Source: Planctomycetota bacterium
GTDB taxonomy: Bacteria > Planctomycetota > UBA1135 > GCA-002748355
Assembly: GCA_027021385.1 (NCBI GenBank)
Contig: JALUUL010000079.1
Span: 126,329 to 190,328 of the forward strand
DNA length: 64,000 bases
Direction: 5' to 3'
Positions within the stretch are counted from its first letter, which is position 1, and each line of letters starts with the position of its first letter. Shown here in pieces: positions 1 to 19,567 of the stretch. The notes beneath the pieces were generated by a model. The model saw only the letters and a list, made by a program, of their open reading frames with translations. It did not search any database and was not told the origin of the DNA. A program made the position numbers and the translations under genes.

Positions 1-649
1 GCCCCGTTCTCCGGACGAAATAGATATGGATCCCGAACAACCCGAGAAAGGCAAGGGGCAGGATCACCACATGCAGGGCGAAGAACCGATGGAGGGTCGG
101 TTCGCCCACGTTGGTTCCGCCTCTCACGAGTTGGACGCATTGTTCCCCGATCAGGGGGATGTCACGCAGGGTTTCGGTTCCGACGGTCGAGCCCCAATAG
201 GAGAGCTGTGTCCAGGGGAGAAGGTATCCGGAGAAGGCGAGGAAGAGGGTCAGCAGGAGGAGGATCATTCCCGTGACCCAGTGGAGTTCCCTGGGGTTCT
301 TGTACTCCGCGAAAAAGAACACCCTGAGGGCATGGAGCATGACGGCTATGATCATCGTCGTCGCGCCGAAGCTGTGCAGGCCGCGGATGAACCAGCCGAA
401 GGGGACTTCCAGGGTGATGCGCTCCACGGAATGGAACGCGCCTGCGGAGGTCGGCACGTAATGGACGAGGAGCAGGATCCCCGTCAGGAGCTGGGAAAGG
501 AAGAAGAGGATCGCGAGTCCTCCCAGGCAGAATGGGAGGCCCGTGGCGCGGGCGGGAATGCCGTAACCGGTCAGGGTCCGCTTGATGAGGTCGCCCAGGC
601 CGATCCTCTCCTCGAGCCAGGAGGCGGTTTTCGGAAAGAGTCCGGACAT
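1..649 (-). CDS. Cytochrome b6-type (cytochrome b N-terminal) subunit of a Rieske/cytb complex, 3'-truncated by the window edge
   Basis: Absent from the ORF track because no stop lies in the window. Manual translation from the ATG at 649 (TGATG overlap with the Rieske stop) gives MSGLFPK...PFCLGG...GWFIRGLHSFGA...MLHALRVF...YKNPRELHWVTG...GYLLPWTQLSYWG...TLHRFFALHVVILP...GIHIYFVRRTG, with four heme-b His ligands. Confidence 0.95.
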   Translation of the reverse strand, partial: MSGLFPKTASWLEERIGLGDLIKRTLTGYGIPARATGLPFCLGGLAILFFLSQLLTGILLLVHYVPTSAGAFHSVERITLEVPFGWFIRGLHSFGATTMIIAVMLHALRVFFFAEYKNPRELHWVTGMILLLLTLFLAFSGYLLPWTQLSYWGSTVGTETLRDIPLIGEQCVQLVRGGTNVGEPTLHRFFALHVVILPLAFLGLFGIHIYFVRRTG

Positions 650-1071
650 CAGGTCTTCTCCCCGAGCTGGATCATTCCCTCCTTGACCCCGACCGGCACC
701 TTCGGGAGGGGTTTTGGGGCGGGTCCTCCCAGGACGGTTCCGTCGAGGGCGAAGGTCGCGTCATGGCACGGACATTCGATCCTTTCCGCGTCCTCGTTCC
801 ATTTCACGAGGCAGCCCAGGTGGGTGCAGACGGCCGTCAGGGCATGGAGTTCTCCTTCGCGGTCCCGGATGATCAGCGTGGGTTTCCCCTTATGGACGAC
901 CTGGACCCCCTGGCCCGGTTTCAAACGCTCGGCGGGGATCTCCACTTCCTCCTCACCGAGCCCCTCGGGGATCGGCGCCAGGTAGTTCGCGGTGATGTAA
1001 CCGCCCGAGGCCAGGGCCGCGAGCCCGCATGCCTGGACGCTGGATACGAGAATGGTTCGGCGGTCGACCAT
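649..1071 (-). CDS. Rieske [2Fe-2S] protein of a Rieske/cytb complex
   Basis: CTHLGC and CPCH boxes, GPAPKPL motif, N-terminal RR plus hydrophobic segment (Tat anchor). Confidence 0.95.
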   Translation of the reverse strand: MVDRRTILVSSVQACGLAALASGGYITANYLAPIPEGLGEEEVEIPAERLKPGQGVQVVHKGKPTLIIRDREGELHALTAVCTHLGCLVKWNEDAERIECPCHDATFALDGTVLGGPAPKPLPKVPVGVKEGMIQLGEKT

Positions 1072-1098
1072 GGTTCGTTTCGTTTTGGCCTCCGGGGA

Positions 1099-1926
1099 TC
1101 AAGTGGTTCCGATCGGCGGTCCCTTGTGGAATACCAAGAACCCGAAGAAGGTGCCTAGGACGAGGAAGCCCATGAGACTCAGGATGAAGGGTACTTCTCT
1201 CGCCTTCTGAACCCTTCTCAGGTTCTCCCGCTCTTCAAGCTTCGTGAAGGTCTTGAGGAGTTGATCGGCGTTCGTGCCGATCTCCTGGATCTTTCCGATC
1301 TGGAAAGAATGGAAGGTTGCGATGACCCCGGCCTGATCCAGGTGGAGTTCCTTCCTTTTGGCGAGGAATGCGGCCTTTGCCACTGGAAGATGTTCGAGAT
1401 CCTCGAGTTTGGACTCCATCCGCTTCTGGAGTGTGTTCGCTTTCTCCAGGGCCTTCAGGGCTTTTTGCGGTGCCTTGAAGTCATGGCACTTCGTGCAGTT
1501 CTTCTCGGTGATGATCTTTTCCGGTTCGGGCTTGGAGATTCCATGATGGCCGTGACAGGAGATGCAGTTGGGGAGGCCATGCGAACCGTGCGGACTCCCC
1601 AGGTGTTTCTCCTTGATCTCTCCGTGACACTTTCCGCAAAAGTAGGGCACATCGTGCATCCTCGGGATGCCGACGTATCCGGTTCCCGGGCTCTTGGGAT
1701 AGCGATCGCTCTCTTTGTCCCCTCCGTGACAGTCGACGCACCCGATCTTCTGCTCGAAGTGGGTCGAACCCCGCCAATCGGAGACGGCGCGTTTCAACGC
1801 ACCGGAGAGCCGGGAATGGCATTCGAGGCAAGAGTCCTTCCCCCCGGGATTCTGGGCGTGGCTGTTCCCCCCGAGGAATCCGAACGCCGCGAGGAATCCG
1901 AGTGCGAGACGGGGAATCCCCTTCAC
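1099..1926 (-). CDS. Membrane-anchored pentaheme cytochrome c (cytochrome subunit of the Rieske/cytb module)
   Basis: 5 CxxCH (CLECH, CVDCH, CGKCH, CISCH, CTKCH), signal peptide, helical stalk and C-terminal TM helix. Start reassigned to GTG 1926 (GTGA overlap with the upstream stop). Confidence 0.9.
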   Translation of the reverse strand: MKGIPRLALGFLAAFGFLGGNSHAQNPGGKDSCLECHSRLSGALKRAVSDWRGSTHFEQKIGCVDCHGGDKESDRYPKSPGTGYVGIPRMHDVPYFCGKCHGEIKEKHLGSPHGSHGLPNCISCHGHHGISKPEPEKIITEKNCTKCHDFKAPQKALKALEKANTLQKRMESKLEDLEHLPVAKAAFLAKRKELHLDQAGVIATFHSFQIGKIQEIGTNADQLLKTFTKLEERENLRRVQKAREVPFILSLMGFLVLGTFFGFLVFHKGPPIGTT

Positions 1927-2930
1927 TTGAGGGCTCCCTGAAGATCCTGGAGAGCCTTCCTGTAGGCGGCGGCGGCGGCCTTGAAGTCCTTCTTCATTTC
2001 GAAGGCCAGGCCGCGGAGAAGAGCGATCTCCGGCTTTCTTCCGTCCATCCCCTCCAGTTTCTTCAAGCACTCTTCAGGACGGCCCTCTTCGATCGCGAAT
2101 CTGGCTTCGAGGAGGTGGAGAGTCGGCGTGCCGGGGGCCAGCTCCCGGACGCGGCGGAGCCAGGGTTCCGCTTGTTTCGTCCGTTTCTGGATCAGGAGCA
2201 CCTTCGTCAGCATTGCGGCGGCCTCTACGGAATCCGTGTCTTTCGTGATCACCTTCTCGAGAGAGGAGCGGGCCTGGGTATACATCCCGGCTGCGATCAA
2301 TTGACGGACCATCCGCAGGGTCCGTGCGAGCTTGAGAGCGTTGTGATCGCTCTTGCCGGAACCACTCTTGGTCGTTGCTGCGTAGAAGGCTTTCTCATCG
2401 ATGAGCCCGGCGGCGAGTTTCGCGGCGGCCGTGACCTTCAAGGGGAGGAGAGGTCCGAAACCCTTGTCGATATGGACGATCTTCCGGTTCTTGTCGATGA
2501 CATAGACCGTCGGGAAAGCGACGACCCTGTATCGCGCGAAGTTCTTCCGCTCCGGGTCCACCGTGATGGAGAACGAGAGCCCCGACTGTTCGAGTACCCG
2601 GGTGAGAGTTCCGAGGTCCCTTTTTCCGGAAGTGATCAGGAGAATCGCAGCTTTCCCTCCAAGCTCCTTCTCGGTCGAGAGGTCCTTGATGATCGCTCTG
2701 AGACCGCGTTCCGAATACATGATGTGCTCGGAGTGGAAGATCAGGATGACGGCCATGTTCTCCCACTGATCCCAGGACAGGGATTTGCCGTTGGCGTCCT
2801 TCGCGGTGAAGGGCGGGGCGATCTGCCCTTTCTCGAGGGATTGGCCGGGACAGGGGGCGACCGCCGGTCCTACCAGGATCGTGATCGTGAAAAGGAAGGT
2901 CCGAAGATGCTCGATCTTGAGGGTGCCCAT
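1923..2930 (-). CDS. Secreted redoxin (AhpC/TlpA-like fold) lacking CxxC, fused to TPR repeats
   Basis: GQIAPPFTAKDANG...VILIF...YRVVAFPTVYVIDKNRKI matches the redoxin fold. The active-site position reads HSEHIMYS. TPR-like helices at the C-terminus. Confidence 0.8.
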   Translation of the reverse strand: MGTLKIEHLRTFLFTITILVGPAVAPCPGQSLEKGQIAPPFTAKDANGKSLSWDQWENMAVILIFHSEHIMYSERGLRAIIKDLSTEKELGGKAAILLITSGKRDLGTLTRVLEQSGLSFSITVDPERKNFARYRVVAFPTVYVIDKNRKIVHIDKGFGPLLPLKVTAAAKLAAGLIDEKAFYAATTKSGSGKSDHNALKLARTLRMVRQLIAAGMYTQARSSLEKVITKDTDSVEAAAMLTKVLLIQKRTKQAEPWLRRVRELAPGTPTLHLLEARFAIEEGRPEECLKKLEGMDGRKPEIALLRGLAFEMKKDFKAAAAAYRKALQDLQGALK

Positions 2931-2956: not shown

Positions 2957-4411
2957 CTACTTCTCTTTCCCTTTCCGGGAAGGATTGTTCTCTACGGCCT
3001 GAAGGTAGTTGTAGCTCTTTGGCGTGTGGCAGCCGGGGGCGCAGCTTCCCCCGGTCGGAAGCTTCTTGAAATTGATCGGGATCTCCCATCCCCCGAAGGG
3101 AACGCTTTTGGCGATGTGCTTCGGGAGATCGCTGGCGTGGGTGTTATGGCAGGCCCTGCAGGTCCGTCCCTTCGTCTTCTTGTTGACGTGGACGAAGTGG
3201 AGGTTACGGGTGCCGTTCCGGAAGTTCGTCAGGGTCTCGGTCCTGGGTTTGAGGAAGACCTGGGAGTCGTGGCAACTGAAGCAGAGGTTGTAGGTCTTCA
3301 TGTCGAAGGGGGCATAGAATTTCTGAGGGTATTCCTTACGGAGGATCCTGAAATTCTTGGATCCGTGGGGGTTGTGGCAGCTCGAGCAATCTCCCTCGCG
3401 GATCGGCCCATGCAGGAACTTGGATTCGCGGATCTTCTGTCCGATCGCGGCCACGACGGTCTTGTCGGGACGGACCGTCGGCTGGTCATGGCAGCTCAGA
3501 CAAAGGTCGATGACGGGTTTGTCCAGGAGCTTGGGGAATTTCGAGGCGTGGGTGTTGTGGCAGTTCTTGCATCCCTCGTTCGTCGTCAGCGCCTCGTGGA
3601 AGACCGTGGCCCCTTCGATCTCCTCTCTCTTCTCCTTGTGACAATCCAGGCAGAGAGCCTGCCTCTCGTTCTTCAGCTGGAAGGGGTGGTCGCTTGCGTG
3701 GGGGTCATGACATTTCGAACAGTCCTCGCTGACGGGGCGGTGCCAGTATTTTGCCCCTTTCAACTGCTGTTCCATGTCCGTGTGGCAGGAGAGACAGTTC
3801 GCGGAGCCTTTCTTGTTCAGAAGCTTCGGATACCAGGAAGTGTGGGGGTCGTGGCAGAGGGTGCAGGCCCCGGCGGCCACCGGGCCGTGGACGAATTTCT
3901 TCCCCATCCCCTTTCCCTGTTCATGGCACTGAGCGCAGAGCTCCCTCGTCGTCTTCGTTTTCAGAAGGGCTTCGTTTTCCGAATGGTGCGGGTTGTGGCA
4001 GGCAGTGCACATTCCATCCCGAATGGGCTTGTGCACGGTGTCATGGAGTTCCATTTCATGACAGGTCGTGCAGAGCTTCATCGGGTTCTCGATGTTCCGG
4101 AAATCGTGCTTGGTTTCTTCGACTTGCTTGTGGCAGATCCGGCATTTCCCGACCGCAACGGGTCCATGAACGTAGGTCCCTTTGGCCATTCCGGGGTGGC
4201 ATTCCGTCGTCGAGCAACTCTGTCCTTTCTTCAGGGTGGTGGGAGCACGTCCTTGAGTCCCCTGGGGAAGGAGAGGCAGGAGGTGATCCGAAAACCCGAA
4301 GGCCGGGATTCCGCTTTCGACGGCGGGGGAATCCATAGCTCCGAAGGGAAGGGACAGGAAAGGAAGGAGCGCCAACCCGAGGAAAGAGGATTTCCGCGGC
4401 ATCGCCTTCAT
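2957..4411 (-). CDS. Periplasmic ~15-heme cytochrome c (paired-CXXCH repeat type)
   Basis: 13 CxxCH plus CSTTECH and CAPGCH; repeated HGPV..G.C..CH.PH units; signal peptide; GAGGT RBS before ATG 4411. Confidence 0.93.
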   Translation of the reverse strand: MKAMPRKSSFLGLALLPFLSLPFGAMDSPAVESGIPAFGFSDHLLPLLPQGTQGRAPTTLKKGQSCSTTECHPGMAKGTYVHGPVAVGKCRICHKQVEETKHDFRNIENPMKLCTTCHEMELHDTVHKPIRDGMCTACHNPHHSENEALLKTKTTRELCAQCHEQGKGMGKKFVHGPVAAGACTLCHDPHTSWYPKLLNKKGSANCLSCHTDMEQQLKGAKYWHRPVSEDCSKCHDPHASDHPFQLKNERQALCLDCHKEKREEIEGATVFHEALTTNEGCKNCHNTHASKFPKLLDKPVIDLCLSCHDQPTVRPDKTVVAAIGQKIRESKFLHGPIREGDCSSCHNPHGSKNFRILRKEYPQKFYAPFDMKTYNLCFSCHDSQVFLKPRTETLTNFRNGTRNLHFVHVNKKTKGRTCRACHNTHASDLPKHIAKSVPFGGWEIPINFKKLPTGGSCAPGCHTPKSYNYLQAVENNPSRKGKEK

Positions 4412-4760: not shown

Positions 4761-6485
4761 TCAATAGCCCTTTCTATGGTGGTCCTTGCCGTGGCAGAGG
4801 AGGGAGCAGCTTCCTCTCCCCATCCCCATGTCGACGAACTCAAGTTTCCCGTTCATCCTGGAGGGAGTGACGATACTGCTCCGAAAGTTGATCAGATGCG
4901 CGTTGTTCGTGCTGTTTCCCTGGTTCGCGGAGATTCCGTGTGCGTCATGGCAGGTCGCGCAGGGCGCCTTCTCTCCCTGGATGTGTTTTCGGTGCTTCCT
5001 GAAGGACTGGTCCCCCAGAATGGAGGTGCGACTGTGGCATTTGTAGCAGAGGGCGTATTGGGTCGCGGATTCGGTGATGTTGTCCTGCGTGTTATAGTTC
5101 AGGGCCAGGAGGGGGCGGTAATTGGACCCATGAGGTCCCCGAGGTCCGTTCCCTCCGAAATCTGGAGAGCTGTCGCTTTGATGGCAGTCGGTACAGGCCA
5201 TCTTGCTCGAAGTCGTCCAGGGGGGCAGGAGGCTCGGAACGTAGGAGTTCTTTCCCGCGGCCTCGATCGGATGATAGGAGGGGTTCGCCGGGTTGAATTC
5301 GAGGCGGACGTTTGTTTGTTGGATGATCCTCGAAACGTAGGCGGTCCCTCCATTCTTGTCTGCGTGACACTTGTAACAGAGCTGATAGCCGTAGGTGATC
5401 CGCTCGACCTTCTGCCCGGCGTTGTCGAGACCCGAGACTCCGAAGAGGGGGCCGGGCACTCCGGGAGGGGCGGCCGTTCCGGCCTTTGCCGTATGGGGGT
5501 TGTGGCAGTCTTGGCATTCCGCGTGCCTGGACATCGTCAGCGGATCCTCGGTCGGATCGTGGATTCCCTGCCAGCTTGAAGGGTTGTGTGCGGAGACCTT
5601 GGCGAGATCGGTGGTGATGTCCTTGGATGCGACGTTTCCGTTGTGGCATCTCAGGCAGTTCTCCTCCTCGGTGGAGAAGTTGAGGAGTCTGTGAGGTTGT
5701 CCGGCGCTGTGCGGGACATGACAGTTCGCGCAGGCGTTCTCCTGAACGGTCGTATAGGTGGTGTTGGGCCAGGGATCGGGCCCGGTCTGATTCCAGGTGG
5801 CCGAGGAGTTCGCATGCGAAGCGGTGTTCCAGTCTCTCGGGTTGTGGCAGGAGAGGCAGAGAGAACCGTTCTTGTCCGTCGTCTTGAGGAATTTCCCCAG
5901 GGAGTCGTTATGGGCGTCGTGGCATGACGTGCACTGGACGAAGCCGTTGTGGTCGAGACTCACGGGAGGCTTGATGGCCGACCCGATGAAGAAGTCGACC
6001 CCCGTTCCTCCCTTCGAAGTCGAGTAGTCGAAGGAGACGGGGTGATCATCTTGGAGATTGGTCCCAATATTGGCCTTTCCCGAGTTGAGGAACCTGGACC
6101 CGGACATCGTGATTTCAGAAGTGAGGCTCACGACTTTCCCGAGCGCGATCGTTCCATCGTGGCAGGATAGGCAGAGTTTCGTCGATCCGTTGGGCTGGCC
6201 GACGTTCCCCTTCAGGGTCGAGGAAGTATAGGGCAGGTAGGTCTGGGTGCTGTCGTCCCGATTCCATAAGGGGAATTGGGTCCGGGCCCGGTGAGGAGCA
6301 TGGCAGAAGATGCAGATTCTCTCCTCGGAGAGGGCCTTGTAGGTGCCCGGCCCGGAAACGGAGAGGTTGTGCTTCGTGTTCTTGATCGAGGTTCCGCCGC
6401 CTTGCGTGAGCGGAAGGGGGAGGGCCCCGAAGAGCAGTGTCGCCGGGCCGAGGACGACCAAGACTTTGCTGAAAACGGGAATCAT
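4761..6485 (-). CDS. ~12-heme cytochrome c with an N-terminal OmcE-like tetraheme domain
   Basis: 11 CxxCH plus CSLLCH. The N-terminal IKNTKHNLS..ICIFCHAPH..LWNR..Y.SST..KLCLSCHDG..DDHPV..QCTSCHDAH..LCLSCH follows the OmcE motif order. Confidence 0.9.
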   Translation of the reverse strand: MIPVFSKVLVVLGPATLLFGALPLPLTQGGGTSIKNTKHNLSVSGPGTYKALSEERICIFCHAPHRARTQFPLWNRDDSTQTYLPYTSSTLKGNVGQPNGSTKLCLSCHDGTIALGKVVSLTSEITMSGSRFLNSGKANIGTNLQDDHPVSFDYSTSKGGTGVDFFIGSAIKPPVSLDHNGFVQCTSCHDAHNDSLGKFLKTTDKNGSLCLSCHNPRDWNTASHANSSATWNQTGPDPWPNTTYTTVQENACANCHVPHSAGQPHRLLNFSTEEENCLRCHNGNVASKDITTDLAKVSAHNPSSWQGIHDPTEDPLTMSRHAECQDCHNPHTAKAGTAAPPGVPGPLFGVSGLDNAGQKVERITYGYQLCYKCHADKNGGTAYVSRIIQQTNVRLEFNPANPSYHPIEAAGKNSYVPSLLPPWTTSSKMACTDCHQSDSSPDFGGNGPRGPHGSNYRPLLALNYNTQDNITESATQYALCYKCHSRTSILGDQSFRKHRKHIQGEKAPCATCHDAHGISANQGNSTNNAHLINFRSSIVTPSRMNGKLEFVDMGMGRGSCSLLCHGKDHHRKGY

Positions 6486-7519
6486 GGCTCCCTCGGATGG
6501 AATTTGAGGATCTGGACCCTGGCGTTCCCACTATCGGCAACGAAGATCCTGTCCTTTGGATCGATGTAAAGCCCCGTCGGAAGGTAGAAATTCCCTAGTC
6601 CGGAACCCTTGGAGCCGACGGCAAGAAGGAGCCGGCCCTTCGGATCGAAGATCTGTATGTTGTCGAACATTCCATCTGCGACGTAGATGTGCCCTTGCGA
6701 ATCCACCGCAATTCCTTTCGGGCTGGCGAAGGTTCCCGGGCCCCGTCCGACGACCCCGAAACTCGTCAGGGGTTCGAAGGCGGGGGAGAGGATTTGGATC
6801 CGGAAGTTCATGCTGTCCGTGATATAGATCCGACTCTCGCGGTCGATACAGAGGTTCGTCGGGAAGTTGAACTCCCCGGGTTTCGCTCCTCTCCGGCCGT
6901 GCACCCCCAAGCGTTTCCCTGTGGGGTCGAAGCTCAGGATCCGTCCCCCCGTCGTGTCCAGGACCAGGAGTCTCCCCTCGTTCCGATCCCAGGCGATTCC
7001 GGTGGGTCTCCCCAACTCGTTCGGACTTCCGAACTTCCTGTGGTAGTTCCCCTCCCGGTCGAAGACGAAGATGCGTCCCAAGGTCGAATCGGAAAGGAAG
7101 ACGAGACCGCCCGGTCCGAGGGCGACCCCGATCGGGGTTTTCAGCTTGGTCCGTCCCGCATTCCGGAAGAAGAGGTGTTCGCCCGATTCGAGGTCGAGGC
7201 GATGAAGACCTCCGGCCCCGGGGTCCGCGATCCACAAGCGGTCCTTCTCGTCCACGGCGAGACCATAGGGGCTGACCAGTTGGAGTTCGTCGTGCCCGAG
7301 GAAGAAGCCGAAGATGGAGCTCCAGAACCCACGGCTACGCTCGACATCCCGCGTGGAATGATAGGCCATAAGGACTTCGACCCGGGGGTTCTCCGAGATC
7401 GGAGGCCAACTGATCCGCTCCTTCGGGACGCGGAGGAAACGTGCGGGGCCGGCGGCGCAGGAGGCGAAGGAGAGGAGGGCGAGGCAGAGGAGTCGCGGGG
7501 GACGGGGTCGAGAATCCAT
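6482..7519 (-). CDS. NHL-repeat six-bladed beta-propeller lipoprotein
   Basis: Lipobox-like FASC; repeated P.GIAVD..G.IYVAD..N.RIQIF blades; GGAGG RBS before ATG 7519. Confidence 0.9.
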   Translation of the reverse strand: MDSRPRPPRLLCLALLSFASCAAGPARFLRVPKERISWPPISENPRVEVLMAYHSTRDVERSRGFWSSIFGFFLGHDELQLVSPYGLAVDEKDRLWIADPGAGGLHRLDLESGEHLFFRNAGRTKLKTPIGVALGPGGLVFLSDSTLGRIFVFDREGNYHRKFGSPNELGRPTGIAWDRNEGRLLVLDTTGGRILSFDPTGKRLGVHGRRGAKPGEFNFPTNLCIDRESRIYITDSMNFRIQILSPAFEPLTSFGVVGRGPGTFASPKGIAVDSQGHIYVADGMFDNIQIFDPKGRLLLAVGSKGSGLGNFYLPTGLYIDPKDRIFVADSGNARVQILKFHPREP

Positions 7520-7521
7520 GC

Positions 7522-9468
7522 TCAAAACCTCCTGGCCACGGAAAGCATCGCATACAGGATCCGCTGATCGGTCGCGACGTCGAAAACCTCGTCGGAATAC
7601 CGGACTTGGAACTTCACCTCCGTAGCGCGGAATCTCTGGATCAAGTTGGACTCGAAGAGGAATCCTTTCCCTTTGTCAGTCCGATACTTGATCTTCCGCC
7701 ATTCGGCTCGGGTGTCGATCCTCGAGTTCTCGGAGAGAACCGCCAGAAGCTGGGCCTGGAGGGTCGTTCCGCGTTCCTTTCCCGTCTGGTCCTTGAATCT
7801 GGATTCGTAGGTCGTGGCGCTCGATCGGCCCTCCAGCCATTGGAGGATCCTCGTCGAGGTCGATGCGCCGAACTCCCACCTCTCGAAGGGGGTGAACTTG
7901 CTGTCGAGGTTCTCATACAGCCCGCGGACCTGATTGGGACCGGAATGGAGAGCCAGGCTGGCCTTCAACCTCGAGGAGTCGTCGAGAGTCCCCGAATCGA
8001 ATCCTCCGAGAAGGGATTGATTCGTTTCGGACCAGGCGAGTTCGATGTCGGCGAACTCCAGGATATCGAATCCGAACGTCAGGGATTGTCCGACGCTCTT
8101 GAAACGCTGCTCCGGCCGGGGAAGAAAGAGGTAATCGACGAGGATCACCTGATTCGGGAGGATTCTGCTCCCCGCTGGAATCTCGATCCTGACCCTGCCC
8201 GCCGAGACCGAGATCAGGTAATCCGTTCCGTTCTGGTAGACCGTGAGTCCGGTCGCATCGGTGATGACGATGCTGGAGAGATCCACGCTGAAGTTGTTCA
8301 GGAGAAGGGGGATGCCCGGAATATAGGTATGGCTTTCATCCAGGACGCTGACAGGCTTGTCATCACTCTGCTCGTTCTGCCAGTAGGTGTCCTGGTGGTA
8401 GTTGATGCGGAGGTTACCGAAGAAGGTCTTCTTCCGGTAATCGATATCTCCTACGTAACCCGCGCGGTTGATCGCCGCATCTCCCTGGTCCGTCCTCTGT
8501 CCCTGGAATCCGGCGCGCACGTCCAGGCTCGAAAAGAGTTCGTAGGTGAGGGTGGATGTATGCCTCCAGGTCTCATTCAGACTCGTATCGGCGTTGCGGA
8601 CCCGGAAGTGATCGAAGATGAGGTCGTGGTCGGAGGAGAGGTTCTCTCTCCATTGGAAGTGGAGACTCGCGTTTCCGATCAGGGACTCGTTGTCGTAATC
8701 GCCGTTTTGTTCCCGGTAGCGGATGGAGTTCGAGAAGGTGTCCTGGTCCTTGTTCCCGAAGTTCCACCCATGAGAAAAGAAGGCATCGAGGTCCGTGAAC
8801 TGGCTGTCGAAACTGCTGATCGTGATGTCGTTGTACTTGATCGAATACTGGAGCCTGCGTGTCTTGTCGAATCGACGTCCCTCGAACTCGAAGTTGTCCC
8901 TCGTCTCGTCGTTGTCGTCCAGCCCGCGACCTTTGTAGGTGTAATGATGGTAATGGAGCCTCGAGGGGATCCACCATTTCTTCGCGAGGAGGTCCATTCC
9001 CGTTTCGGTGACCGTGGCCTCGGTCGTTTCGAAGAAGGTCTGTCTGGTCCTCGTTTCCTGCCTGTTGGAATAGATGTGTGCGGAATAGGGATGCTGCCAG
9101 AGGATCCGGGCGTGGAAATCGTATCCAAGGTTCGTGCTGTTGATCGAACGGTTCCGGACTCCGGCCCCTCCGATCCATTGCTGTTCGAGCCCTAGCGACG
9201 TCGCGAGTTCGTATTCCAGGAGCCTGGGGTGGTAGATATCGCCGGCGAAGCGCAGGTGGAGGTCCTCTCGCAGGGTCTTCTCCTTCTCGATCAAAGTCGA
9301 ATAGTCGGTGACCCTCCGCTCGTCCCGATACTCCCCGCGGAGCTGGAAGTCTCCGCCGAACTCCGTCAGATGGAACCATGTCCGCCGCTGGGCGTTCACC
9401 GAGGACGCGGCGGCCAGGAGAACCGGCAAGACCGTGAGGCAGGCTCTCGTTCCCGCCCGGTTCTTCAT
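7522..9468 (-). CDS. Outer-membrane beta-barrel (porin of a porin-cytochrome conduit, ExtB/OmbB-like role)
   Basis: Signal peptide, many amphipathic aromatic-rich beta-strands, C-terminal ...YAMLSVARRF (terminal Phe); ATGA overlap with the upstream cytochrome gene. Confidence 0.8.
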   Translation of the reverse strand: MKNRAGTRACLTVLPVLLAAASSVNAQRRTWFHLTEFGGDFQLRGEYRDERRVTDYSTLIEKEKTLREDLHLRFAGDIYHPRLLEYELATSLGLEQQWIGGAGVRNRSINSTNLGYDFHARILWQHPYSAHIYSNRQETRTRQTFFETTEATVTETGMDLLAKKWWIPSRLHYHHYTYKGRGLDDNDETRDNFEFEGRRFDKTRRLQYSIKYNDITISSFDSQFTDLDAFFSHGWNFGNKDQDTFSNSIRYREQNGDYDNESLIGNASLHFQWRENLSSDHDLIFDHFRVRNADTSLNETWRHTSTLTYELFSSLDVRAGFQGQRTDQGDAAINRAGYVGDIDYRKKTFFGNLRINYHQDTYWQNEQSDDKPVSVLDESHTYIPGIPLLLNNFSVDLSSIVITDATGLTVYQNGTDYLISVSAGRVRIEIPAGSRILPNQVILVDYLFLPRPEQRFKSVGQSLTFGFDILEFADIELAWSETNQSLLGGFDSGTLDDSSRLKASLALHSGPNQVRGLYENLDSKFTPFERWEFGASTSTRILQWLEGRSSATTYESRFKDQTGKERGTTLQAQLLAVLSENSRIDTRAEWRKIKYRTDKGKGFLFESNLIQRFRATEVKFQVRYSDEVFDVATDQRILYAMLSVARRF

Positions 9469-10199
9469 CGATGGCCCCCTCCCTCTCCCGGGCGCCACTT
9501 CGGAGGTCTGGTCTCCATGGATTTCCGGGTTTTGCCCCTGCTTTCCTTCCCCAGGCCGGGAACGACGGTTGCCTTGATCATGTAGCGGCGCTTGGAGGAA
9601 TGGGGGTCATGACATTCCGTGCAGGATCCCTTCTCGAAGGTCTTGTGGCGTTTCCTCGTGACGAAGGTGTCCCCCGTGTGGCACCGCGCGCAGAGGGTGT
9701 CGGGATTCTTGACTTTCAGGAGGTGGGGGTATGAGGACCGGTGGTGCTCATGGCACTGGGCGCACTCGCCGGCGGCCACCGGCCCATGGACGAAGGCTTC
9801 CTCGGGGGGCTTATGGCATTTCTTGCACAGGAGCTTTTTCGGAAGGCGCAGCTCGGACAGACCCTGCCTCCAGGTGGGCTGGGAGTTTCCTCCACGGGGA
9901 GCGGTCGAATGGCAATCCCCGCATCGCTTCTCCTGGAAGGGTTTGTGGAAAAAGACCTCGACCTTCTTCAGCCGCTCCTCCTGGAGCTTGGCCCTCTCCT
10001 CTAGGGTCAGGGACCGGAGTTCAATTCGGGGAACCGGGCCGATGAAGTCGGGTGTTCCGGGAGTCCTGGGATCCGGAACCCCGTCGAAGAAGAAGGACAG
10101 GATCTCATACTTCTTGAGGGCCGTACAGGCAGCCGTCACTCCAAGGGGGCAGAAGGCCAGGAGAAGCAGGAGGGCCGGAGGACTTCGTCGGAGCGACAT
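9465..10199 (-). CDS. Lipoprotein pentaheme cytochrome c (ExtC-like partner of the porin)
   Basis: Lipobox-like VTAAC followed by LSFFFDGVP; 5 CxxCH; translationally coupled to the beta-barrel gene. Confidence 0.88.
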   Translation of the reverse strand: MSLRRSPPALLLLLAFCPLGVTAACTALKKYEILSFFFDGVPDPRTPGTPDFIGPVPRIELRSLTLEERAKLQEERLKKVEVFFHKPFQEKRCGDCHSTAPRGGNSQPTWRQGLSELRLPKKLLCKKCHKPPEEAFVHGPVAAGECAQCHEHHRSSYPHLLKVKNPDTLCARCHTGDTFVTRKRHKTFEKGSCTECHDPHSSKRRYMIKATVVPGLGKESRGKTRKSMETRPPKWRPGEGGGHR

Positions 10200-10443: not shown

Positions 10444-11199
10444 ATGCTTGGAATCGCGCGCTGGGGGGGCGCTGTCCTCTTGGGGACGATCGGGATGGCG
10501 GCCGGGGGAGAGGAAACGGTGACGGCCCTTGGCATGGAGATCTCCCCCTCCTCCCCGGTCGTCGCAGGGACCTCTGAGAGTTGCCTGTCCTGCCATCTTG
10601 ATCTTCGGGGGAGGGGGCACCCTCTTGGTGATCGAATGCCGGAGGGAAGCGGCCTGCCTGGGGAGGCGGCCTTGGGGCTCGGTTGCTTGACCTGCCATGA
10701 TTCGGGAACGGTCCGGGATGACCATCGAAAATCCCGGGCCTCCCACTTGCGGGAGATTCCTCGCGTCCTGTGCAGGCGTTGTCATCGGGATCCGGAACCG
10801 GGGTCGCGTCTGGGGCACACGATGGACCTCGGCAGGGCGCACGCTTCCGGAGGGAGGGAACGAGGGGACAGGAAGGCCTTCCTCGGTGGAGTGGACCGCA
10901 TATCCCTAGGATGCCTTGGCTGCCATGACGGAAGCGTCGCTTCGGAGGCCAAGGTCGACCTTCCCGGAGAGCCTCGGATTCCGGGAAGGGCCGGGTCGGG
11001 GCTGCAGCATCCGATCGGAGCCCGGTCCATGGTAAGAGGGGCGGAAACGACACCTCCGTCTCCGCGACCGACGAGGTCGGATGCGCGGGAAGGGATCCTC
11101 GGATGTCTGAGCTGCCACGATCCCTGGAGCCCCTGGGAATCCCAGCTCTCGAGGAACCCTGAGGACGGCGGACTCTGCAGGTCCTGCCACGTGAAATGA
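10444..11199 (+). CDS. Hexaheme cytochrome c with a C-terminal OmcE-like half
   Basis: 6 CxxCH; signal peptide; C-terminal SLGCLGCHDG..QHPIG..CLSCHDPW..LCRSCHVK. Confidence 0.85.
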   Translation: MLGIARWGGAVLLGTIGMAAGGEETVTALGMEISPSSPVVAGTSESCLSCHLDLRGRGHPLGDRMPEGSGLPGEAALGLGCLTCHDSGTVRDDHRKSRASHLREIPRVLCRRCHRDPEPGSRLGHTMDLGRAHASGGRERGDRKAFLGGVDRISLGCLGCHDGSVASEAKVDLPGEPRIPGRAGSGLQHPIGARSMVRGAETTPPSPRPTRSDAREGILGCLSCHDPWSPWESQLSRNPEDGGLCRSCHVK

Positions 11200-11293: not shown

Positions 11294-12373
11294 ATGATCT
11301 TCGCGACTCTCACCCTGAGCCTCGCTCTTCCCCTTCTTCTCCAGACGAGCCGACCCTCGGGAGGGCCGGTTACCCGGGAGTCGAAGGAGCGGGCGGGAAA
11401 ACCGGTGGAGAATCCTGTCCTTGCCGAGGTCGGGTCGGTGAAGATCCGCCAGAGCGATGTCCTTGCGGAGATCAACCGCCTGATTCCGCTGAACTTCTAT
11501 CACGGGAAGGTCCCCGTGGAGAAGATGGAATCCTTCCGGGACAAGGCCCTCCAGTCCCTGATCGAACGGGCCCTGATCCACCAGGACGCGCTCGCCTCGG
11601 GGCTGCGGGCGGGCGAGGAGGAGATCCGCGCGACATTCGAGGCCTCTCTGAAGAAGGCCGGTCCCAAGTACTCCGAACTCCCGTCCGAGGAGAAGGCGAA
11701 ACTCTTGGAAACATACCGGCCCCTCGTCGAGAGGAGGGTCTTGATCGACAAGAACGAGGCTCGTTTCGAAGCCTCCCTTCCTAAGGTCAAGGAGGAGGCC
11801 GTGAGGGCTACGTACGAGGCGAGGAAATCCAAGCTGCTGGCGCCCCGTGAGGGCCATTTCCTCCACATCCTCTTGAAGGTCGATCCCGGCGCCAGCGAGG
11901 CCGAGATCGCGAAGGCGAAGGAGAAGATGCTGAAGGCCCGGAAGGAGATCCTCGGAGGGCGCCCCTTCGCGGAGGTCGCGAAGGAGATCTCCCAGGATAT
12001 CTATGCCTCGAGGGGCGGGGACATGGGATGGGTCAAGGAGGGGAGTTTTCTCGGGGGGCCGGTCGGGGAGGCTGCGTTCAAGCTCGAGGCGGGAGAACTC
12101 TCGGAACTCGTCTCCTCGATCTATGGCTTCCATCTTGTCCAGTGTCTGGCCTGGAAACCGCGGAAGACGATGTCTTTCGAGGAAGCCAGAAAGAGTATCG
12201 AAATCGAACTCGAGGAGGCGATCCGGCGTTCGGCGCGGGAGCGCTGGCTGGCGACCCTGAGAGAGCGCTTTCCGGTGAAGATCCATCGAGTCGGGATCCT
12301 CGCGGAATCCCCGAAGGAAGAAACCGCTTCCTCGAAGCCGGCCTCCCGTCCCGGCCCGCATGGAGGGCGCTGA
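11294..12373 (+). CDS. Periplasmic PpiC/parvulin peptidyl-prolyl isomerase (SurA/PrsA-like foldase)
   Basis: Signal peptide, SurA-N-like helices, HILLKV...FAEVAKEISQD...GGDMGW...SIYGFHLV rotamase motif. Confidence 0.9.
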   Translation: MIFATLTLSLALPLLLQTSRPSGGPVTRESKERAGKPVENPVLAEVGSVKIRQSDVLAEINRLIPLNFYHGKVPVEKMESFRDKALQSLIERALIHQDALASGLRAGEEEIRATFEASLKKAGPKYSELPSEEKAKLLETYRPLVERRVLIDKNEARFEASLPKVKEEAVRATYEARKSKLLAPREGHFLHILLKVDPGASEAEIAKAKEKMLKARKEILGGRPFAEVAKEISQDIYASRGGDMGWVKEGSFLGGPVGEAAFKLEAGELSELVSSIYGFHLVQCLAWKPRKTMSFEEARKSIEIELEEAIRRSARERWLATLRERFPVKIHRVGILAESPKEETASSKPASRPGPHGGR

Positions 12374-12552
12374 CCTCCCGGCGGAACTGCGACGAACCGC
12401 CGCTTCCTTTTTCCATACTCGGGAATGGGTTTCGCCCGAAGGAAAGCAACGATGAGGACTCGAGTGCCGGGCGTTTCCAGGGCCTCGGACATGCTCCCGG
12501 TTCCGGCGCTTGGAACATCCGGGCGGAGTTCCTCCTTGGGGAGGGTCGAATC

Positions 12553-13836
12553 ATGATCTGGCCGTTCCTTTTGGCCGTCTTGTCGATCTACTCGCCGCAG
12601 GCGGGGGCGCAGGACCCTCGTAACAGCCATTGCATGTCCTGCCATCTTGCGAAGGACTCGAAGCTGCTGCACGCCTTCGAGGGGAGCGTCCATGGAATCG
12701 CGGGGATCGGCTGCATCGGTTGCCATGGAGGGGATCCTGGGGGGGAGACGAAGGAGGACGGGCATCTCCGTTCGAAAGGCTATTCGGGAGTCCTGAAGCG
12801 GCGGGACATCCCCGCATTGTGCGGGTCCTGTCACGGGGACGAGGCGGAGATGCGCAAGGTCCGCCTGGATTTCCGGGTCTACGAGGACTGGAAACGGAGC
12901 AAGCACGGGCGACTAGCGGCGAAGGGGGATCCCAGGGTTCCGATCTGCAGTGATTGTCACGGGGACCACGGGATCCTTTCGCGGCTCGATCCGGCTTCAC
13001 CGACCCACCGGCGGAACATCGCCGGAACCTGCGGCTCCTGCCACTCGGATCCGGTGAAGATGGGGGCCAGCAAGCTTCCGACGAATCAGGAGAAGGAATA
13101 CCGGGAAGGGATCCATGGGGAGATCCTTTACGGCAAGCGCAAGGGGAATCCGAACCTGGTTCCGACCTGCATCGATTGCCATGGAGGCCATGGAGCCGTT
13201 CCGCCGACCGCCCGATCCGTGCCGGAGGTCTGCGGGAGTTGCCATTTCGAGGAACGGAGGTTCCTCGCGCAGAGCCCCCACGCCGAATCCTTGCGGTTCA
13301 CGGGGGAACCTTCCTGCAAGGACTGCCACGGGAACCATCACAACACGATCCCCGAGGAAGGACTGCAGGAAAAGGTCTGTATCCCCTGCCACAACGATCC
13401 CAAGGACGTAGGTACCCGGGAGGCCAAGGCCTTCGCGAGCCTCCTGGCGCGGGGAGGCCAGGCCCTGGGGCGGCTGGACAAGGCTCTCGAAGAGGCGCAA
13501 GCGAGGGAGCCTTCCTCCCTGGTCTCCATGCTCCTCGAGGCGGAATGGAAGCGGGCCGAGACTGCCTATTCGACCCTGCGTAAGGAATCGCACACCCTGA
13601 ACCGTCCCATCGTCTCCAAGGCGGTCGAGGATCTGGAGAGCATCGTTCGGACGGTCCTGGCCGTCGCCGAGAACGGGATCGACCGTGAGAAGGGGTTTTC
13701 CGAGACGGTCACGATGATGATCCTCATTGGCGTCGGGAGCGGGCTCCTGGTCGCGAGCGTGGTCGTCGTCCTCCTGCTTCTCCGCATCCTTGGCCGAGGC
13801 AAGGACAGGAAAGCTGTAAAGGCCGGAGATTCTTGA
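12553..13836 (+). CDS. Membrane-anchored nonaheme cytochrome c
   Basis: Start reassigned to ATG 12553 (MIWPFLL signal peptide); 9 CxxCH; helical stalk and C-terminal TM helix. Confidence 0.9.
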   Translation: MIWPFLLAVLSIYSPQAGAQDPRNSHCMSCHLAKDSKLLHAFEGSVHGIAGIGCIGCHGGDPGGETKEDGHLRSKGYSGVLKRRDIPALCGSCHGDEAEMRKVRLDFRVYEDWKRSKHGRLAAKGDPRVPICSDCHGDHGILSRLDPASPTHRRNIAGTCGSCHSDPVKMGASKLPTNQEKEYREGIHGEILYGKRKGNPNLVPTCIDCHGGHGAVPPTARSVPEVCGSCHFEERRFLAQSPHAESLRFTGEPSCKDCHGNHHNTIPEEGLQEKVCIPCHNDPKDVGTREAKAFASLLARGGQALGRLDKALEEAQAREPSSLVSMLLEAEWKRAETAYSTLRKESHTLNRPIVSKAVEDLESIVRTVLAVAENGIDREKGFSETVTMMILIGVGSGLLVASVVVVLLLLRILGRGKDRKAVKAGDS

Positions 13837-13837
13837 C

Positions 13838-15499
13838 ATGAGGTCGGTTCTCCTCTTTCCGTTCCGGGTTCCCTTCCTCCTTCTCAAGTGGATGTTCGCG
13901 GGACGATACCGTTTCGTGTTCCTCCTCATCCTCGTATTCGGCGGCATGGTCTTCGGGACCGTCGAGGGATGGCATTACGCTTCCAGCCCGGATTTCTGCC
14001 GATCCTGCCACCACATGGAGCCCTACTGGCAGTCCTGGTCCCGCTCGACCCACAAGCACGTCCAATGCATCGGCTGCCATTTCGAACCGGGGCTCGGCAA
14101 CGAGTTCCATGCCAAGTTCCAGGCCCTGAAACAGCTCGCCAGCGCGGTGACGGGGATGTACAGCTCCAGACCCTTCGCGGAGGTCAGCGACCGTTCTTGT
14201 CTCCGGTCGGGTTGTCACAGTACGAGGGGGCTGGGGAAGGAAGTGGAGTTCTCGAAACGGGGGGTCTTTTTCGACCATCCGAAGCATCTGGGGGAGCTGC
14301 CCTTCGGGATCAAGCTGGCCTGCATCTCCTGTCATTCCCAGGTGACCGTCGACAACCACATGGAAGTGGACCGGAACACCTGTTTCCTGTGCCATTTCAA
14401 GGGTAGCAAGGCCCCCGACGGCACCCCCGACCCGATGGAGGCCTGCGGCGTCTGTCATGGAGCCCCCCGGAAGGAACTCTCGGTCGGGGGGTTGAAGATC
14501 GACCACAAGGATTTCCTGAAGCGCGGGATGGAATGCGCCCAATGCCACCTGGAGGTCGTGTCAGGAACCGGGGAGGTCGGCCGGGGGAGGTGTCTGGGTT
14601 GCCACAACCAGCCTTCCTATCTCGAGGAGTTCGGGGACGTGGAGGCCCTGCACCTCAAGCACGTGTCGATCCACAAATTGAACTGCTATCTGTGCCACGA
14701 ACGGATCGAGCACCGTTTCCGAACCGAGGAAGGAACTGTGGCAGAGTCCCATCCTAAGGGGCTCCCGGACGGGGACTGTTCCAAATGCCACCTGGAACCG
14801 CATAGCCCCCAAGCGGCCTTCTACGCCGGAAAGGGTGCAGTCTCCGTGCAAGGCGAGCCGGATCCGATGTCCAAATACGGGTTGGACTGCTCCGCCTGTC
14901 ACGGTCTGGCCCGCCGTTCCAAGGCCGAGATCAACGCCCATTCCCGCGTGGATTCGGCGACTCTCGCCCGGGGGTCTTGCAACGGATGTCACGGGCAGGG
15001 GTACAGTGAGTTCGTGGGTCCCTTCCTCGAGAGGGTCGGGGAGGTTCAGCACCATCTCGAAAAGCGTCTCGACCGCGTGCTGGAGACCTTCCGCGGGATC
15101 GAGGAGAGAGAAGATGTCGTTCCCAGGAAGACGTTCCACACCGCGAAGAACACGGAGAAAGACCTGGCATTCCTCCGGAGGGCGCGTCCTATACACAATC
15201 CCTTCTTCGCGGTCGCTATCCTGAGGCGGGCCGACAGGGATTTGGCCGTCGTCGAAAAGGACCTTGGAGTCCCTGTCCTACCCGGACGCCCCAAGGACTT
15301 CCCGAAGGAGGGATGCCTCGTCTGCCACGAGGCCCTGCCCCCCCCGGGGAAGATCAAGCTCAAGGACGGGAAGGTCTTTTCGCACCGGATGGCCTTCAAG
15401 GCCGACGGGCCGACCTGCACGGCCTGTCACAAGGGCCCGAACCATCCGGCCAAGCCCGTCGTTCCTTACGGGGTCTGCTCCACCTGCCACAAGAAATGA
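13838..15499 (+). CDS. NapC/NirT-family quinol dehydrogenase extended to ~15 hemes
   Basis: N-terminal TM helix, then SSPDFCRSCHHMEPY..W..STHKHVQCIGCH (NapC/NirT signature); 14 CxxCH plus CLRSGCH. Confidence 0.9.
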   Translation: MRSVLLFPFRVPFLLLKWMFAGRYRFVFLLILVFGGMVFGTVEGWHYASSPDFCRSCHHMEPYWQSWSRSTHKHVQCIGCHFEPGLGNEFHAKFQALKQLASAVTGMYSSRPFAEVSDRSCLRSGCHSTRGLGKEVEFSKRGVFFDHPKHLGELPFGIKLACISCHSQVTVDNHMEVDRNTCFLCHFKGSKAPDGTPDPMEACGVCHGAPRKELSVGGLKIDHKDFLKRGMECAQCHLEVVSGTGEVGRGRCLGCHNQPSYLEEFGDVEALHLKHVSIHKLNCYLCHERIEHRFRTEEGTVAESHPKGLPDGDCSKCHLEPHSPQAAFYAGKGAVSVQGEPDPMSKYGLDCSACHGLARRSKAEINAHSRVDSATLARGSCNGCHGQGYSEFVGPFLERVGEVQHHLEKRLDRVLETFRGIEEREDVVPRKTFHTAKNTEKDLAFLRRARPIHNPFFAVAILRRADRDLAVVEKDLGVPVLPGRPKDFPKEGCLVCHEALPPPGKIKLKDGKVFSHRMAFKADGPTCTACHKGPNHPAKPVVPYGVCSTCHKK

Positions 15500-15520: not shown

Positions 15521-18500
15521 TCAAGGAGTGAGTTCCAGCTTGGGGCGGATGGCCGAGCGATATCTGAGATAGGACAGCACGATGACGGCGATCTCGAAGA
15601 TGCAGAAGAGGGCCGCATAGAGCAGTCCTCCTTCCGAGGAGCCGTAGGAATGCAGGCCCGCGGCGAGAACGAAGTTGACCCCGTAATACGTCATGACGAC
15701 GGAGAGGAAGCTGGCGATCGAAGAGACGGCCAGTCCGAAGGGGTGGAGCCAGCCCGCGAAGCGTGCATGCACGATGCCCAGGTAGACGAAGAAGGTGATC
15801 AGGGACCAGGTTTCCTTCGGATCCCAACCCCAGTACCTCCCCCAACTTTCGTTGGCCCAAATGGCGCCGAAGACGATCCCGGCCGCGAGAAAGAGGAGTC
15901 CGACCTGCATCGTCTTGTAGGTGAGGTTCGTGAGGGTCCGGAGCATCTCGGTCCTCCCGGGCCGGAACAACTGGACCCAGATGACGATATGACCGAGTCC
16001 CATGTTCAGGGCGAAGGCGGAATAGGCCAGCATGATCGTCATCACGTGGACCGACAACCAGTAGGTGTGGGCCAGGACGGGCACGAGGGGGTTGATCGAG
16101 GAATCCAGGGGCAGGTGCTCCGAGAAGAGAAGGCAGAGGAAGCCCATCAGGCTTGCAACGAGTCCGAAGAAACGCTTGCGGTAGAGGAACTCGAGGAAGA
16201 GCCCGATCGCGATCGTGCCCCAACCCATGAAAACCAGGGATTCGTACATGTCCGAGACCGGAGCCCTTTCGGCGATTGCCCATCTGAGTCCGATGCCGGT
16301 CGTGTGAGCGGCGAAACCGAGGATCAGGGCCGTCATGCCCGCCCAATATCCCTTCCGGTTCTTGACGAAACCGAAGAAGAGGATCAGCAGGAAGCTCAGC
16401 AGATAGGCCTTCCAGGCCTTCCCGAAGGCCTCGAACTCTTCGTAAAAGATCTCCAGGGATAGGGCTTCCTCCGGAGGGTAGGTCTCGGGGCCCGCTTCCC
16501 GGAGAATTCCCGTCAGTTCTTCGGCGGCCTTGCCGAAGTCCTGTGGATCCTTGTCCCTCCATGCCTTGGACATCCGGATGAAACCGGCAAAGATCCGTTT
16601 TTGCAGGTCCGACTTCGCGTCCTTGAAGTCGTTCGGAGTTTCCCATTTTCCCTGGGAATCCTTGACGGGAACGATACGGAGGGATGTGCCGCGGAGAATC
16701 CCGGAGAGTAGTTCCAGGCGGCGGTAGACCTCGAGGGCGTCCTTCTCGATCTTCGTCAGGTCTTCGTGATTGCGGTCCTTGGTGATCGCGCGACCGGCGA
16801 CCTCTTGGAACCGCGGATGCATCATGAGCCGCAGGAAGGAGAAGCGTTTCTTCCCCTCCTCCAACTCCATCAAGGCCTTGAGTTCCTTACTGTCGATCCG
16901 GATATACGGTCGATTCCGGAAATCCTCCGGGGCGAGGTTGTAGCCCCAGAGCAGTTCGAGAGAGCTCAGGCCGTCGTGCTTCCTATGCCCGGTGATCGCG
17001 GTCGCGAACTCGTTCGCGAAAGTGAGAAGGGGTTTGATTCTTCCCGAGGACTGGATGGCCCAGGCCTTGGTCTTCTCGACCGGCATTCCCGTCGGGCCGC
17101 CTGAGGCCTTCGCGGGCACGGAGGAGAGCAGGACCGCGGCCAGGAACCAGAAACCCGTCAATGCCCCCTTCGTTGCGGTATGACCCATGTTCGTGGCCTC
17201 CTGTGCGGGGTTCTTTTCCATGTTCGTCACCGACTCCTTCCTGTTCATGGGTTCCGGCCCGTCGATCCCGGGCCTCCTCGGTTTTCCGTGTCCGCGCAGA
17301 TACCAGGCGATTCCCAGGATGATCAGAAAGAAACTCGGGTAGACGATCGGGACTCCCGGGTCCTTGGAGACGGAGAGGATCGTCATGTCCGGGCCGCCTC
17401 TCTCCCCGAGCTGGTAACTGCTTTGGAAGAGCCGGAAGCCTCCGTAGTCGAGCGGGCGGTTCATCGAGATCACGGTCTCGATAGGCTCCTCGTCGATCCC
17501 GTGCGGAGTCACCTTGACCTTCGAGGCATAGGTCTTGGGACGCCTCGAACCGGGGTAGAACTCCAGGATGAAGTCCTCGAGTTCGAGACTGAAGGGCAGT
17601 TCCTTCGTCGAGCGTTTATAGGCGAAGAGGAGCGAGCCTCCTTCGAGTCCGATTTCGTCGTCCCAACCCCGGCCGATCCAGAAGGTGTTTTCCTTCCCCT
17701 TCCAGTGGGCCTTCAGTTTCAGGAAGGCGCGATTCGTCTCTTTCCCCTTCTTGGAGGATTCGACCCGGACCTCGGCCTTGGCGCTCTTCACGAACCGTTC
17801 GAGTTTGAAATCCAATCCGAGGTTTCCGACTGCGATTGTCTGCCCCTCGATGATTTCGAGGGCGGGCCCCCGCCCGATCGAGGCCGAGAGTTGGATCCAG
17901 AACCTCTTGCCTCCGTCATGGAGGATCGAGACCAAGGGCTTCTTGCCGGCGGAATTCGCCTCGAGGCGGATCCTTTGAACGAGGGGGGCTCCCTTCTGGC
18001 CCCGGATCGAGTTGAAGGTAGGGAAATTGGCGAAGACCTTGTGGATCTCTGTGTGGCTCTTCCCCCGGACCTCGACGACGGCGGCGGGATTACTGCCCGA
18101 TCCGGGGACGTTGCGCAGCTTGCCCTGGACGATCTTGGCTTCAGGCATGAAGGACAGGACCTTCACCGAGATTCCTTCCCCGGCCTGGACGACCTTCCCG
18201 AGAGAAGCGGGAAGGGGGAGGTCCAGGGGGGAACCTTTCTCGGACACGAGGACACGGATGCTGGAGCCACCGGTCTTTCGCTCGGGGAGACGGCCTTTCA
18301 AGGCTTCCGGGTCCCGGATCACGAGGAACTCGATCTCGACCGGGCCGACGTCCTTCCTGCGGAAGTCGGCATGGTCGGCGATCAGCCATTGCCTGCCCTC
18401 GACACCCATCCCGGAGAGCTGGAACTGGATGCCTGGGCTCCCCTCCACCCCGGCGTCCGTAAGGTGGACGTAAGGGGTCCCATCCTCGAGGAAGCGTTCG

Positions 18501-19024: not shown

Positions 19025-19153
19025 CCCGGTCAACCGGGTACGGAGGAAGGCTCGGTCCGCCCTTCCCCGGGAGGCTTCCCCCCCCCGGGAGGTCCGGCGG
19101 TCATTCGGGTCCGAGGGAACCCGAGCGGAACGATGTCGGCGACGCGGAGGTAG

Positions 19154-19447: not shown

Positions 19448-19567
19448 CTTCTCCCGGTCGCTCACCTCGGAGGCGGCTCCGAGGAGCCCGCCTAGGGGCG
19501 GGAAGACGAGAAACTGAAAACCGTTCGTTGGACACCTTCCCTGCCACAGATGGAAAGGATGAAAGTC

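Follow-up and report, generated by a model that had tools for sequence, protein, structure and literature searches.

The 64,000-nucleotide stretch analysed here (the window; Planctomycetota bacterium, assembly GCA_027021385.1, contig JALUUL010000079.1, positions 126,329 to 190,328) contains a cluster of multiheme cytochrome genes arranged around a large, predicted beta-barrel protein of the outer membrane (7522..9468, minus strand). As judged by profile comparison, the barrel is a member of the UetC superfamily, distinct from both MtrB and GSU0619, and the system belongs to the already described Uet/OmcE class. What appears to be new is the insert-bearing subfamily of barrels, a swappable tagged adaptor that also occurs fused to the barrel, and the presence of the system in Planctomycetota. 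The gene for this adaptor, a pentaheme cytochrome (9465..10199, minus strand), is replaceable beside the barrel and is not the barrel's constant partner. We tentatively prefer, at somewhat less than even probability, the reading that OmcE-domain cytochromes leave through the barrel and are retained in its lumen, where they form the base of a wire, the pentaheme being an optional electron feed docked at the periplasmic rim.

Barrel fold and family

The barrel gene encodes 648 aa ending in phenylalanine and its ATG overlaps the TGA of the pentaheme gene (ATGA), the coupled arrangement already noticed in the first-pass annotation. In the AlphaFold2 model, built from 138 aligned sequences (predicted local distance difference test, pLDDT, 95.8; predicted template modelling score, pTM, 0.84), 17 strands are followed by an 86-residue insert (residues 368-453; 8110..8367, minus strand) and then by 11 more strands, giving a total of 28. 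All 28 are amphipathic, with alternating hydrophobic and polar residues, the other loops are only 2-8 residues long and there is no plug domain. The non-barrel insert suspected in the annotation is confirmed by this model as a beta-sandwich, and every one of the 138 aligned family members has it. A formula with assumed shear numbers puts the C-alpha diameter at an estimated 50-55 Å for 28 strands versus 48-50 Å for 26. MtrB is reported to have 26 strands and to hold MtrA within (PMC12133095), so a heme chain can fit the wider barrel predicted here, in line with the annotation's expectation of a transmembrane barrel able to hold one. The lack of a plug and the short loops imply that something must fill it.

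As is the rule among outer-membrane barrels, the C-terminal phenylalanine would be periplasmic, which would place the insert outside the cell. Under this topology, sequence conservation peaks on the presumed periplasmic side (17 of 131 positions above 2.5 bits, versus 3 of 131 on the outer side) and in the insert (17 of 86). The insert resembles phage domains: it matches the tail-tube model NF052337 (E 7.6e-7, under the cut-off of that model), phrog_807 in two of the five proteins scanned, and PF27730-type phage domains at the structural level (template modelling, TM, score 0.77-0.86, Atlas). In phage YSD1 an inserted immunoglobulin-like domain 2 is described as latching adjoining subunits (PMC7385642), and by analogy the barrel insert may act as a latch. 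Some barrel-less proteins of roughly 250 aa contain this domain as well (L017:9713-10465, genomes G225 and G212, and several genomes of another class).

Searching with the barrel profile recovered 2,533 representatives (clusters at 50% identity) at E ≤0.001. No family was assigned to the barrel in a Pfam scan, a PDB sequence search with a 10-sequence profile gave no matches at E 10, a plasmid search gave none either, and Foldseek returned only generic barrels, with TM ≤0.38 among the matches listed. The best structural neighbour found by VIA-align was MtrB (Z 20.8, root-mean-square deviation 8.2 Å over 392 residues, 10% identity; next match Z 17.8), which we read as an effect of size. The MtrB/PioB family model TIGR03509 does not match the barrel, HHalign against a control profile of 15 MtrB sequences reached 56% over 141 columns, and a search of the host genome, which is 93% complete, found no MtrB. 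The annotation's view that this is not a conduit of the MtrAB type is therefore upheld.

A uet-ordered barrel (L055) was first found, weakly, by the barrel profile. A uet-type profile was made from 30 barrels that each have a three-heme open reading frame (ORF) after them and, in 27 cases, a peptidyl-prolyl isomerase (PPIase) match before them; these barrels serve as a proxy for the UetC of Tenderia. HHalign between the window barrel and this profile gave 98.6% and E 1.4e-15 over 531 columns. As this alignment runs end to end, the barrel is best regarded as a UetC-superfamily member with an added insert. The barrel of the fetched Geobacter omcE locus, in turn, clusters with GSU0619, a family of about 750 aa with about 34 strands (our own count on a model) and no sandwich insert. 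Against this family HHalign gave 75-77% (E ~2e-5) over the C-terminal half only, and the GSU0619 profile had no match among the barrels of the related loci on which it was run. Given the generic half-length match and about 34 versus 28 strands, orthology with GSU0619 was rejected. Taken together, at least three types of barrel are in use among OmcE-type clusters. A further subfamily (603-628 aa; L054:6575-8419, L056:1265-3151), which matches the profile except in the insert region, lies between an OmcE-like tetraheme and an NHL gene.

Partners of the barrel and the proposed pentaheme adaptor

Two proteins of the locus carry OmcE-type domains. The tetraheme encoded at 19550..20251 (plus strand), UetA-like and a candidate wire subunit, matches the OmcE-type structures 9YUQ (E 1.5e-12) and 7TFS (E 5.9e-11) and has the four CxxCH motifs and four distal histidines that define an OmcE homologue. 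The 12-heme cytochrome (4761..6485, minus strand; 11 CxxCH and one longer motif), UetJ-like, consists of an OmcE module, residues 18-215 matching 7TFS (OmcE) at E 1.7e-32, joined to a further multiheme module. All eight OmcE heme-ligand histidines are kept both in the tetraheme and in the OmcE domain of the 12-heme. In two genomes (G162, G289; L031:9248-11181, L032:4703-6786) the 12-heme is split into an OmcE-like gene and a gene with seven CxxCH. The 12-heme is a candidate filament tip or initiator. Four-nucleotide overlaps chain the genes of the pentaheme, the barrel, an NHL beta-propeller (6482..7525, minus strand; predicted lipoprotein, FASC) and the 12-heme. A second NHL propeller, also a predicted lipoprotein (LGSC), is encoded at 20461..21690 and a SurA/PpiC-type PPIase, UetB-like, at 11294..12373 (both plus strand; all three by domain scan).

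The constancy of these partners was tallied in those 17 of 33 related loci whose flanks reach 6 kb or more on either side; the remaining 16 were too short. An OmcE-like tetraheme, at least two NHL genes and an undecaheme (11-CxxCH) cytochrome accompany the barrel in 16 of 17; in the exceptional locus the undecaheme sits elsewhere in its genome. The gene directly upstream of the barrel is more variable, being a pentaheme in six loci, one or more c7 trihemes in three, and an NHL gene, with no cytochrome there, in eight; in one of these eight a tagged 9-heme lies at a distance of 3 kb. Among 301 genomes of the same phylum the barrel profile matches 19; a full-length barrel occurs in nine, the host of the window included, and all nine also match the OmcE-domain 12-heme. 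Four other genomes of the phylum match only its C-terminal part. The 401 genomes of another class gave 18 barrel matches, nine near full length. Since the genomes are related, these counts are descriptive only.

Gene content around the barrel varies in other ways. In genome G702 (L050:8453-13757, a single contig) the barrel is flanked by a frame of 807 aa that contains NHL repeats, by a short piece of NHL sequence and by a gene resembling a PPIase. The stretch read has no cytochrome ORF, the undecaheme is about 0.9 Mb away and the cluster has possibly been rearranged. In two loci that lack the tagged adaptor (L046, L048), cytochromes of 8, 7, 3 and 22-23 hemes are present, along with a third NHL gene downstream.

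The pentaheme (244 aa, five CxxCH) has a signal stretch ending in VTAAC, followed by LSFFFDGVP, and is likely to be a lipoprotein, as the annotation had proposed. Conservation was evaluated in 68 five-heme, motif-bearing sequences among the 120 homologues listed: Cys25 is at least 90% conserved, F37-G40 are invariant, and so are 10 histidines, indicating that all five hemes can be bis-His. The protein resembles MtrA in sequence (E 4.6e-5); the DmsE/MtrA model TIGR03508 scores it at 57 bits against a cut-off of 192, and it has five hemes rather than ten. Residues 25-42 (10074..10127, minus strand), spanning the lipid-carrying cysteine and the tag, are proposed as a barrel-docking module.

The tag also occurs on homologues with 7-13 hemes, so that tagged partners span 5 to 13, and they include a large multidomain c7 protein (locus L013). 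A profile of the cysteine and FFDGVP matched, at 8 bits or more, 21 of 140 heme ORFs near the insert-bearing barrel family and 0 of 70 near uet-type barrels (flanks of 1.5 kb). Two of the 21 are c7-type proteins scoring merely 12-14 bits; one non-heme ORF among the 18,715 of the host genome also reached 14 bits, so these two matches are suggestive only. Two further c7 proteins near this barrel family show a tag-like stretch by eye. Tagged 9-heme lipoproteins (P0174, P0189) are also found in records labelled Bacteroidota, and so are insert-bearing barrels (Atlas).

Among the 150 top-ranking homologues of the barrel, three unite a lipoprotein pentaheme, a linker of 65-125 aa with no second signal-like stretch, and a barrel (33-44% identical) in one polypeptide. 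They possibly descend from one fusion event; the existence of these natural fusions supports a physical complex of pentaheme and barrel. A 930-aa frame in locus L024 was rejected as a fusion, its pentaheme being in a different frame.

Known clusters, possible mechanism and alternatives

The cluster uetA-J, as outlined in a preprint on Tenderiales (bioRxiv 10.1101/2022.05.06.490989), encodes a tetraheme, a PPIase, a 28-strand barrel, c7 trihemes, a cupredoxin, a pair of NHL proteins and an undecaheme, with ccsAB coming next, and is reported from 'Ca. Tenderia electrophaga', other Tenderiales and Gallionella (also PMC10734462). The window locus shares with it the tetraheme, the PPIase, the 28-strand barrel, two NHL proteins, an 11-CxxCH cytochrome, system II maturation and a TPR protein. 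In contrast, it has the tagged lipoprotein pentaheme instead of c7 trihemes and cupredoxin: no triheme ORF (UetDEG) was found in the window and no cupredoxin (UetF) among the 15 locus proteins scanned. Gene order also differs from uetA-J, barrel identity is only about 11%, the 86-aa insert is unmatched in the uet-ordered barrels, and the host is a member of Planctomycetota.

A minimal OmcE cluster is described as OmcE itself together with two each of multiheme cytochromes and propeller lipoproteins, plus a large barrel (PMC13712944). Like those of Geobacter sulfurreducens and Desulfuromonas soudanensis (7TFS, 9YUQ), the window locus combines an OmcE homologue and a pair of propeller lipoproteins with multiheme cytochromes and a large barrel, resB/ccsB lying close by; unlike them, its barrel is not of the GSU0619 family and it has the OmcE-domain 12-heme. 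The five phyla listed in PMC13712944 do not include Planctomycetota, to which this locus extends OmcE-type clusters. A literature search found no description of a Uet/OmcE cluster in this phylum, key papers and a supplement outside the search possibly describing the barrel type already.

A large barrel and a paired-CxxCH cytochrome are shared with MtrAB, MtoAB and PioAB, whose barrels, however, have 26 strands versus 28 here and whose partner is a decaheme rather than a 5-heme lipoprotein. The annotation had likened the locus to ExtABCD, and both do have a pentaheme lipoprotein, a 12-heme cytochrome and a barrel. This resemblance does not hold further: ExtB is described with 18 strands versus 28, published strand number being the only ground for setting it apart, while the window barrel is a UetC-type homologue that lies among genes of the OmcE/Uet kind. 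The description of the Ext system (PMC8357294) places ExtA in the periplasm and ExtC/D outside the cell, and mentions neither propellers nor OmcE. The PCC3/PCC4 conduits, described with a five-helix inner-membrane protein and without propellers in the account given in PMC5566968, were set apart by that description only. The osc (OmcS companion) cluster and the DFE_448-465 clusters of D. ferrophilus likewise combine wire-type cytochromes with helper genes (as reported in PMC13194489 and PMC5815863), and the latter are described as pairing multiheme cytochromes with NHL propellers (PMC5815863). In D. ferrophilus, porin-cytochrome conduit genes are not apparent according to PMC9769857.

For the preferred reading, export with a lumenal wire base, we infer the following steps. 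The PPIase and the two NHL lipoproteins would chaperone OmcE-type subunits to the barrel, and the tetraheme would polymerise through or from the pore, the OmcE-domain 12-heme starting or capping the polymer. The lipid-bearing cysteine and the FFDGVP tag would tether the pentaheme to the barrel, and electrons would move, in one direction or the other, along a path that joins the quinone pool (cytochrome b/Rieske, NapC-type) to the 15-heme, then the pentaheme and finally the chain in the lumen, while the outer insert would brace the emerging wire. That the OmcE-domain cytochromes would fill the lumen and a variable tagged cytochrome sit at the rim is suggested by the constancy of the wire parts and the replaceability of the pentaheme. 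Also, tagged partners carrying 5-13 hemes, with a large multidomain c7 protein among them, would be hard to fit in one lumen. Barrels of OmcE clusters have been proposed to be secretion pores or anchors (PMC13712944).

Several points weigh against this reading, in which the polymer and the lumen occupant are deduced from genes and models. The barrel next to the gene of a proven OmcE filament, GSU0619, is of another family and larger (~34 strands), and 28 strands may be tight for folded OmcE. Five of the eight loci without an adjoining cytochrome come from a single class sample, so the eight are not independent. An inserted pentaheme would account just as well for the fusions and for the likeness to MtrA, and the Uet authors, in their preprint, favour an inserted conduit (bioRxiv 10.1101/2022.05.06.490989). 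No other secretion channel is seen in the locus, as the annotation had stated; this does not extend to the genome, where six secretin-domain matches elsewhere could export the subunits. Deletion of similar cytochrome-NHL clusters in D. ferrophilus is reported to cause no defect with Fe(III) oxide (PMC9769857).

A static conduit with no polymer, in which the 12-heme rod or one tetraheme threads the barrel, in the way suggested for UetJ or UetA in UetC, and the pentaheme is a periplasmic relay, seems unlikely. It would suit the constancy of the undecaheme, which is translationally coupled via the NHL gene, and a heme rod suits the estimated diameter; the published models show UetJ as a wire in the form of a bar, and UetC as a pore of some 5 nm (bioRxiv 10.1101/2022.05.06.490989). 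It leaves unexplained, however, the separate OmcE-like tetraheme with all filament histidines in 16 of 17 loci, as well as the PPIase and the two propellers. Slightly less probable again is an MtrAB-like conduit in which the pentaheme lies inside the barrel and passes electrons across to an outer cytochrome. The ATGA coupling, the three fusions with their linkers of 65-125 residues free of a second signal-like stretch, the self-contained bis-His, MtrA-like pentaheme and the structural match to MtrB (Z 20.8) all speak for it, yet 11 of 17 loci have no pentaheme next to the barrel, or another cytochrome in its stead, a search of genome G304 gave no tag-bearing homologue, heme number in the partner ranges from 5 to 13, and the middle and outer strand positions of the barrel are less conserved. 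The annotation had left electron conduit and nanowire export side by side; export is still a live option. Export alone, through a usher-like pore from which cytochromes are released or held by the insert while electrons cross the membrane otherwise, is improbable: the large plug-less barrel, the PPIase and the propellers would accord with it, and Osc proteins are assigned secretion roles in a secondary account of the osc cluster (PMC13194489), but a heme protein is linked to the barrel, by fusion or by the tag, the search of the 93%-complete genome found no MtrB, and an empty pore of such width would presumably leak.

A bolder version of the export reading, which we consider doubtful, would make the whole barrel family of 2,533 clusters a dedicated nanowire usher with a phage-tail-like outer latch, swappable feeders attached through the portable cysteine/FFDGVP tag, and the OmcE-domain 12-heme as tip or initiator. 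The OmcE operons examined in PMC13712944 contain no such tip candidate, as far as that account goes. By which means cytochrome nanowires leave the cell, what anchors them and how they are charged is a stated open question (PMC13712944, PMC12307469), for which this barrel family offers handles: single-chain fusions, natural variants that either have or lack the adaptor, a short tag that is a candidate for docking, an insert on the outer face and a candidate for the tip protein.

Remaining genes of the locus

The 15-heme paired-CxxCH cytochrome (2957..4411, minus strand; 13 CxxCH and two longer motifs, by motifs and domain scan), likely periplasmic, begins 350 nt beyond the 12-heme gene. The annotation had placed it downstream of the barrel, which is correct, but it is the third gene down rather than the neighbour, the NHL propeller and the 12-heme lying between. 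It is followed on the same strand by a redoxin-like and TPR protein (1923..2930), a pentaheme with a hydrophobic C-terminus that is likely a membrane anchor (1099..2070, sequence and motifs), a Rieske 2Fe-2S protein (649..1071) and a cytochrome b (1..649; PF00033, E 2.6e-51) that continues past the left edge of the window; the redoxin-like and Rieske proteins were recognised by domain scan.

Transcribed divergently from the pentaheme adaptor is a hexaheme cytochrome (10444..11199, plus strand, by motifs), and no sigma-70-type promoter was found in the gap between them. Beyond the PPIase lie a 9-heme cytochrome (12028..13836, ORF limits, the real start being probably more internal; sequence and motifs) and a NapC/NirT-type membrane-anchored multiheme cytochrome (13838..15499; 14 CxxCH and one longer motif, by motifs and domain scan), both on the plus strand. 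The locus has two candidate links to the quinone pool, namely cytochrome b/Rieske/anchored pentaheme (1-2070, minus strand) and the 9-heme with the NapC-type 15-heme (12028-15499, plus strand). Cytochrome c maturation is represented by a fused ResB/CcsA protein, a single ORF of 1,170 aa (15521..19033, minus strand; domain scan), the two parts being separate frames in the related locus L003. A sensor kinase and a sigma-54-type response regulator (21700..24542, plus strand, from sequence) follow the second NHL gene, and their homologues recur at related loci. A search of sequencing runs matched one DNA run, a hydrothermal-vent metagenome from which the window may derive, and listed no RNA run. 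Elsewhere in the host genome (C8:68502-72600), an 18-heme ORF is followed by a 765-aa frame with three CxxCH.

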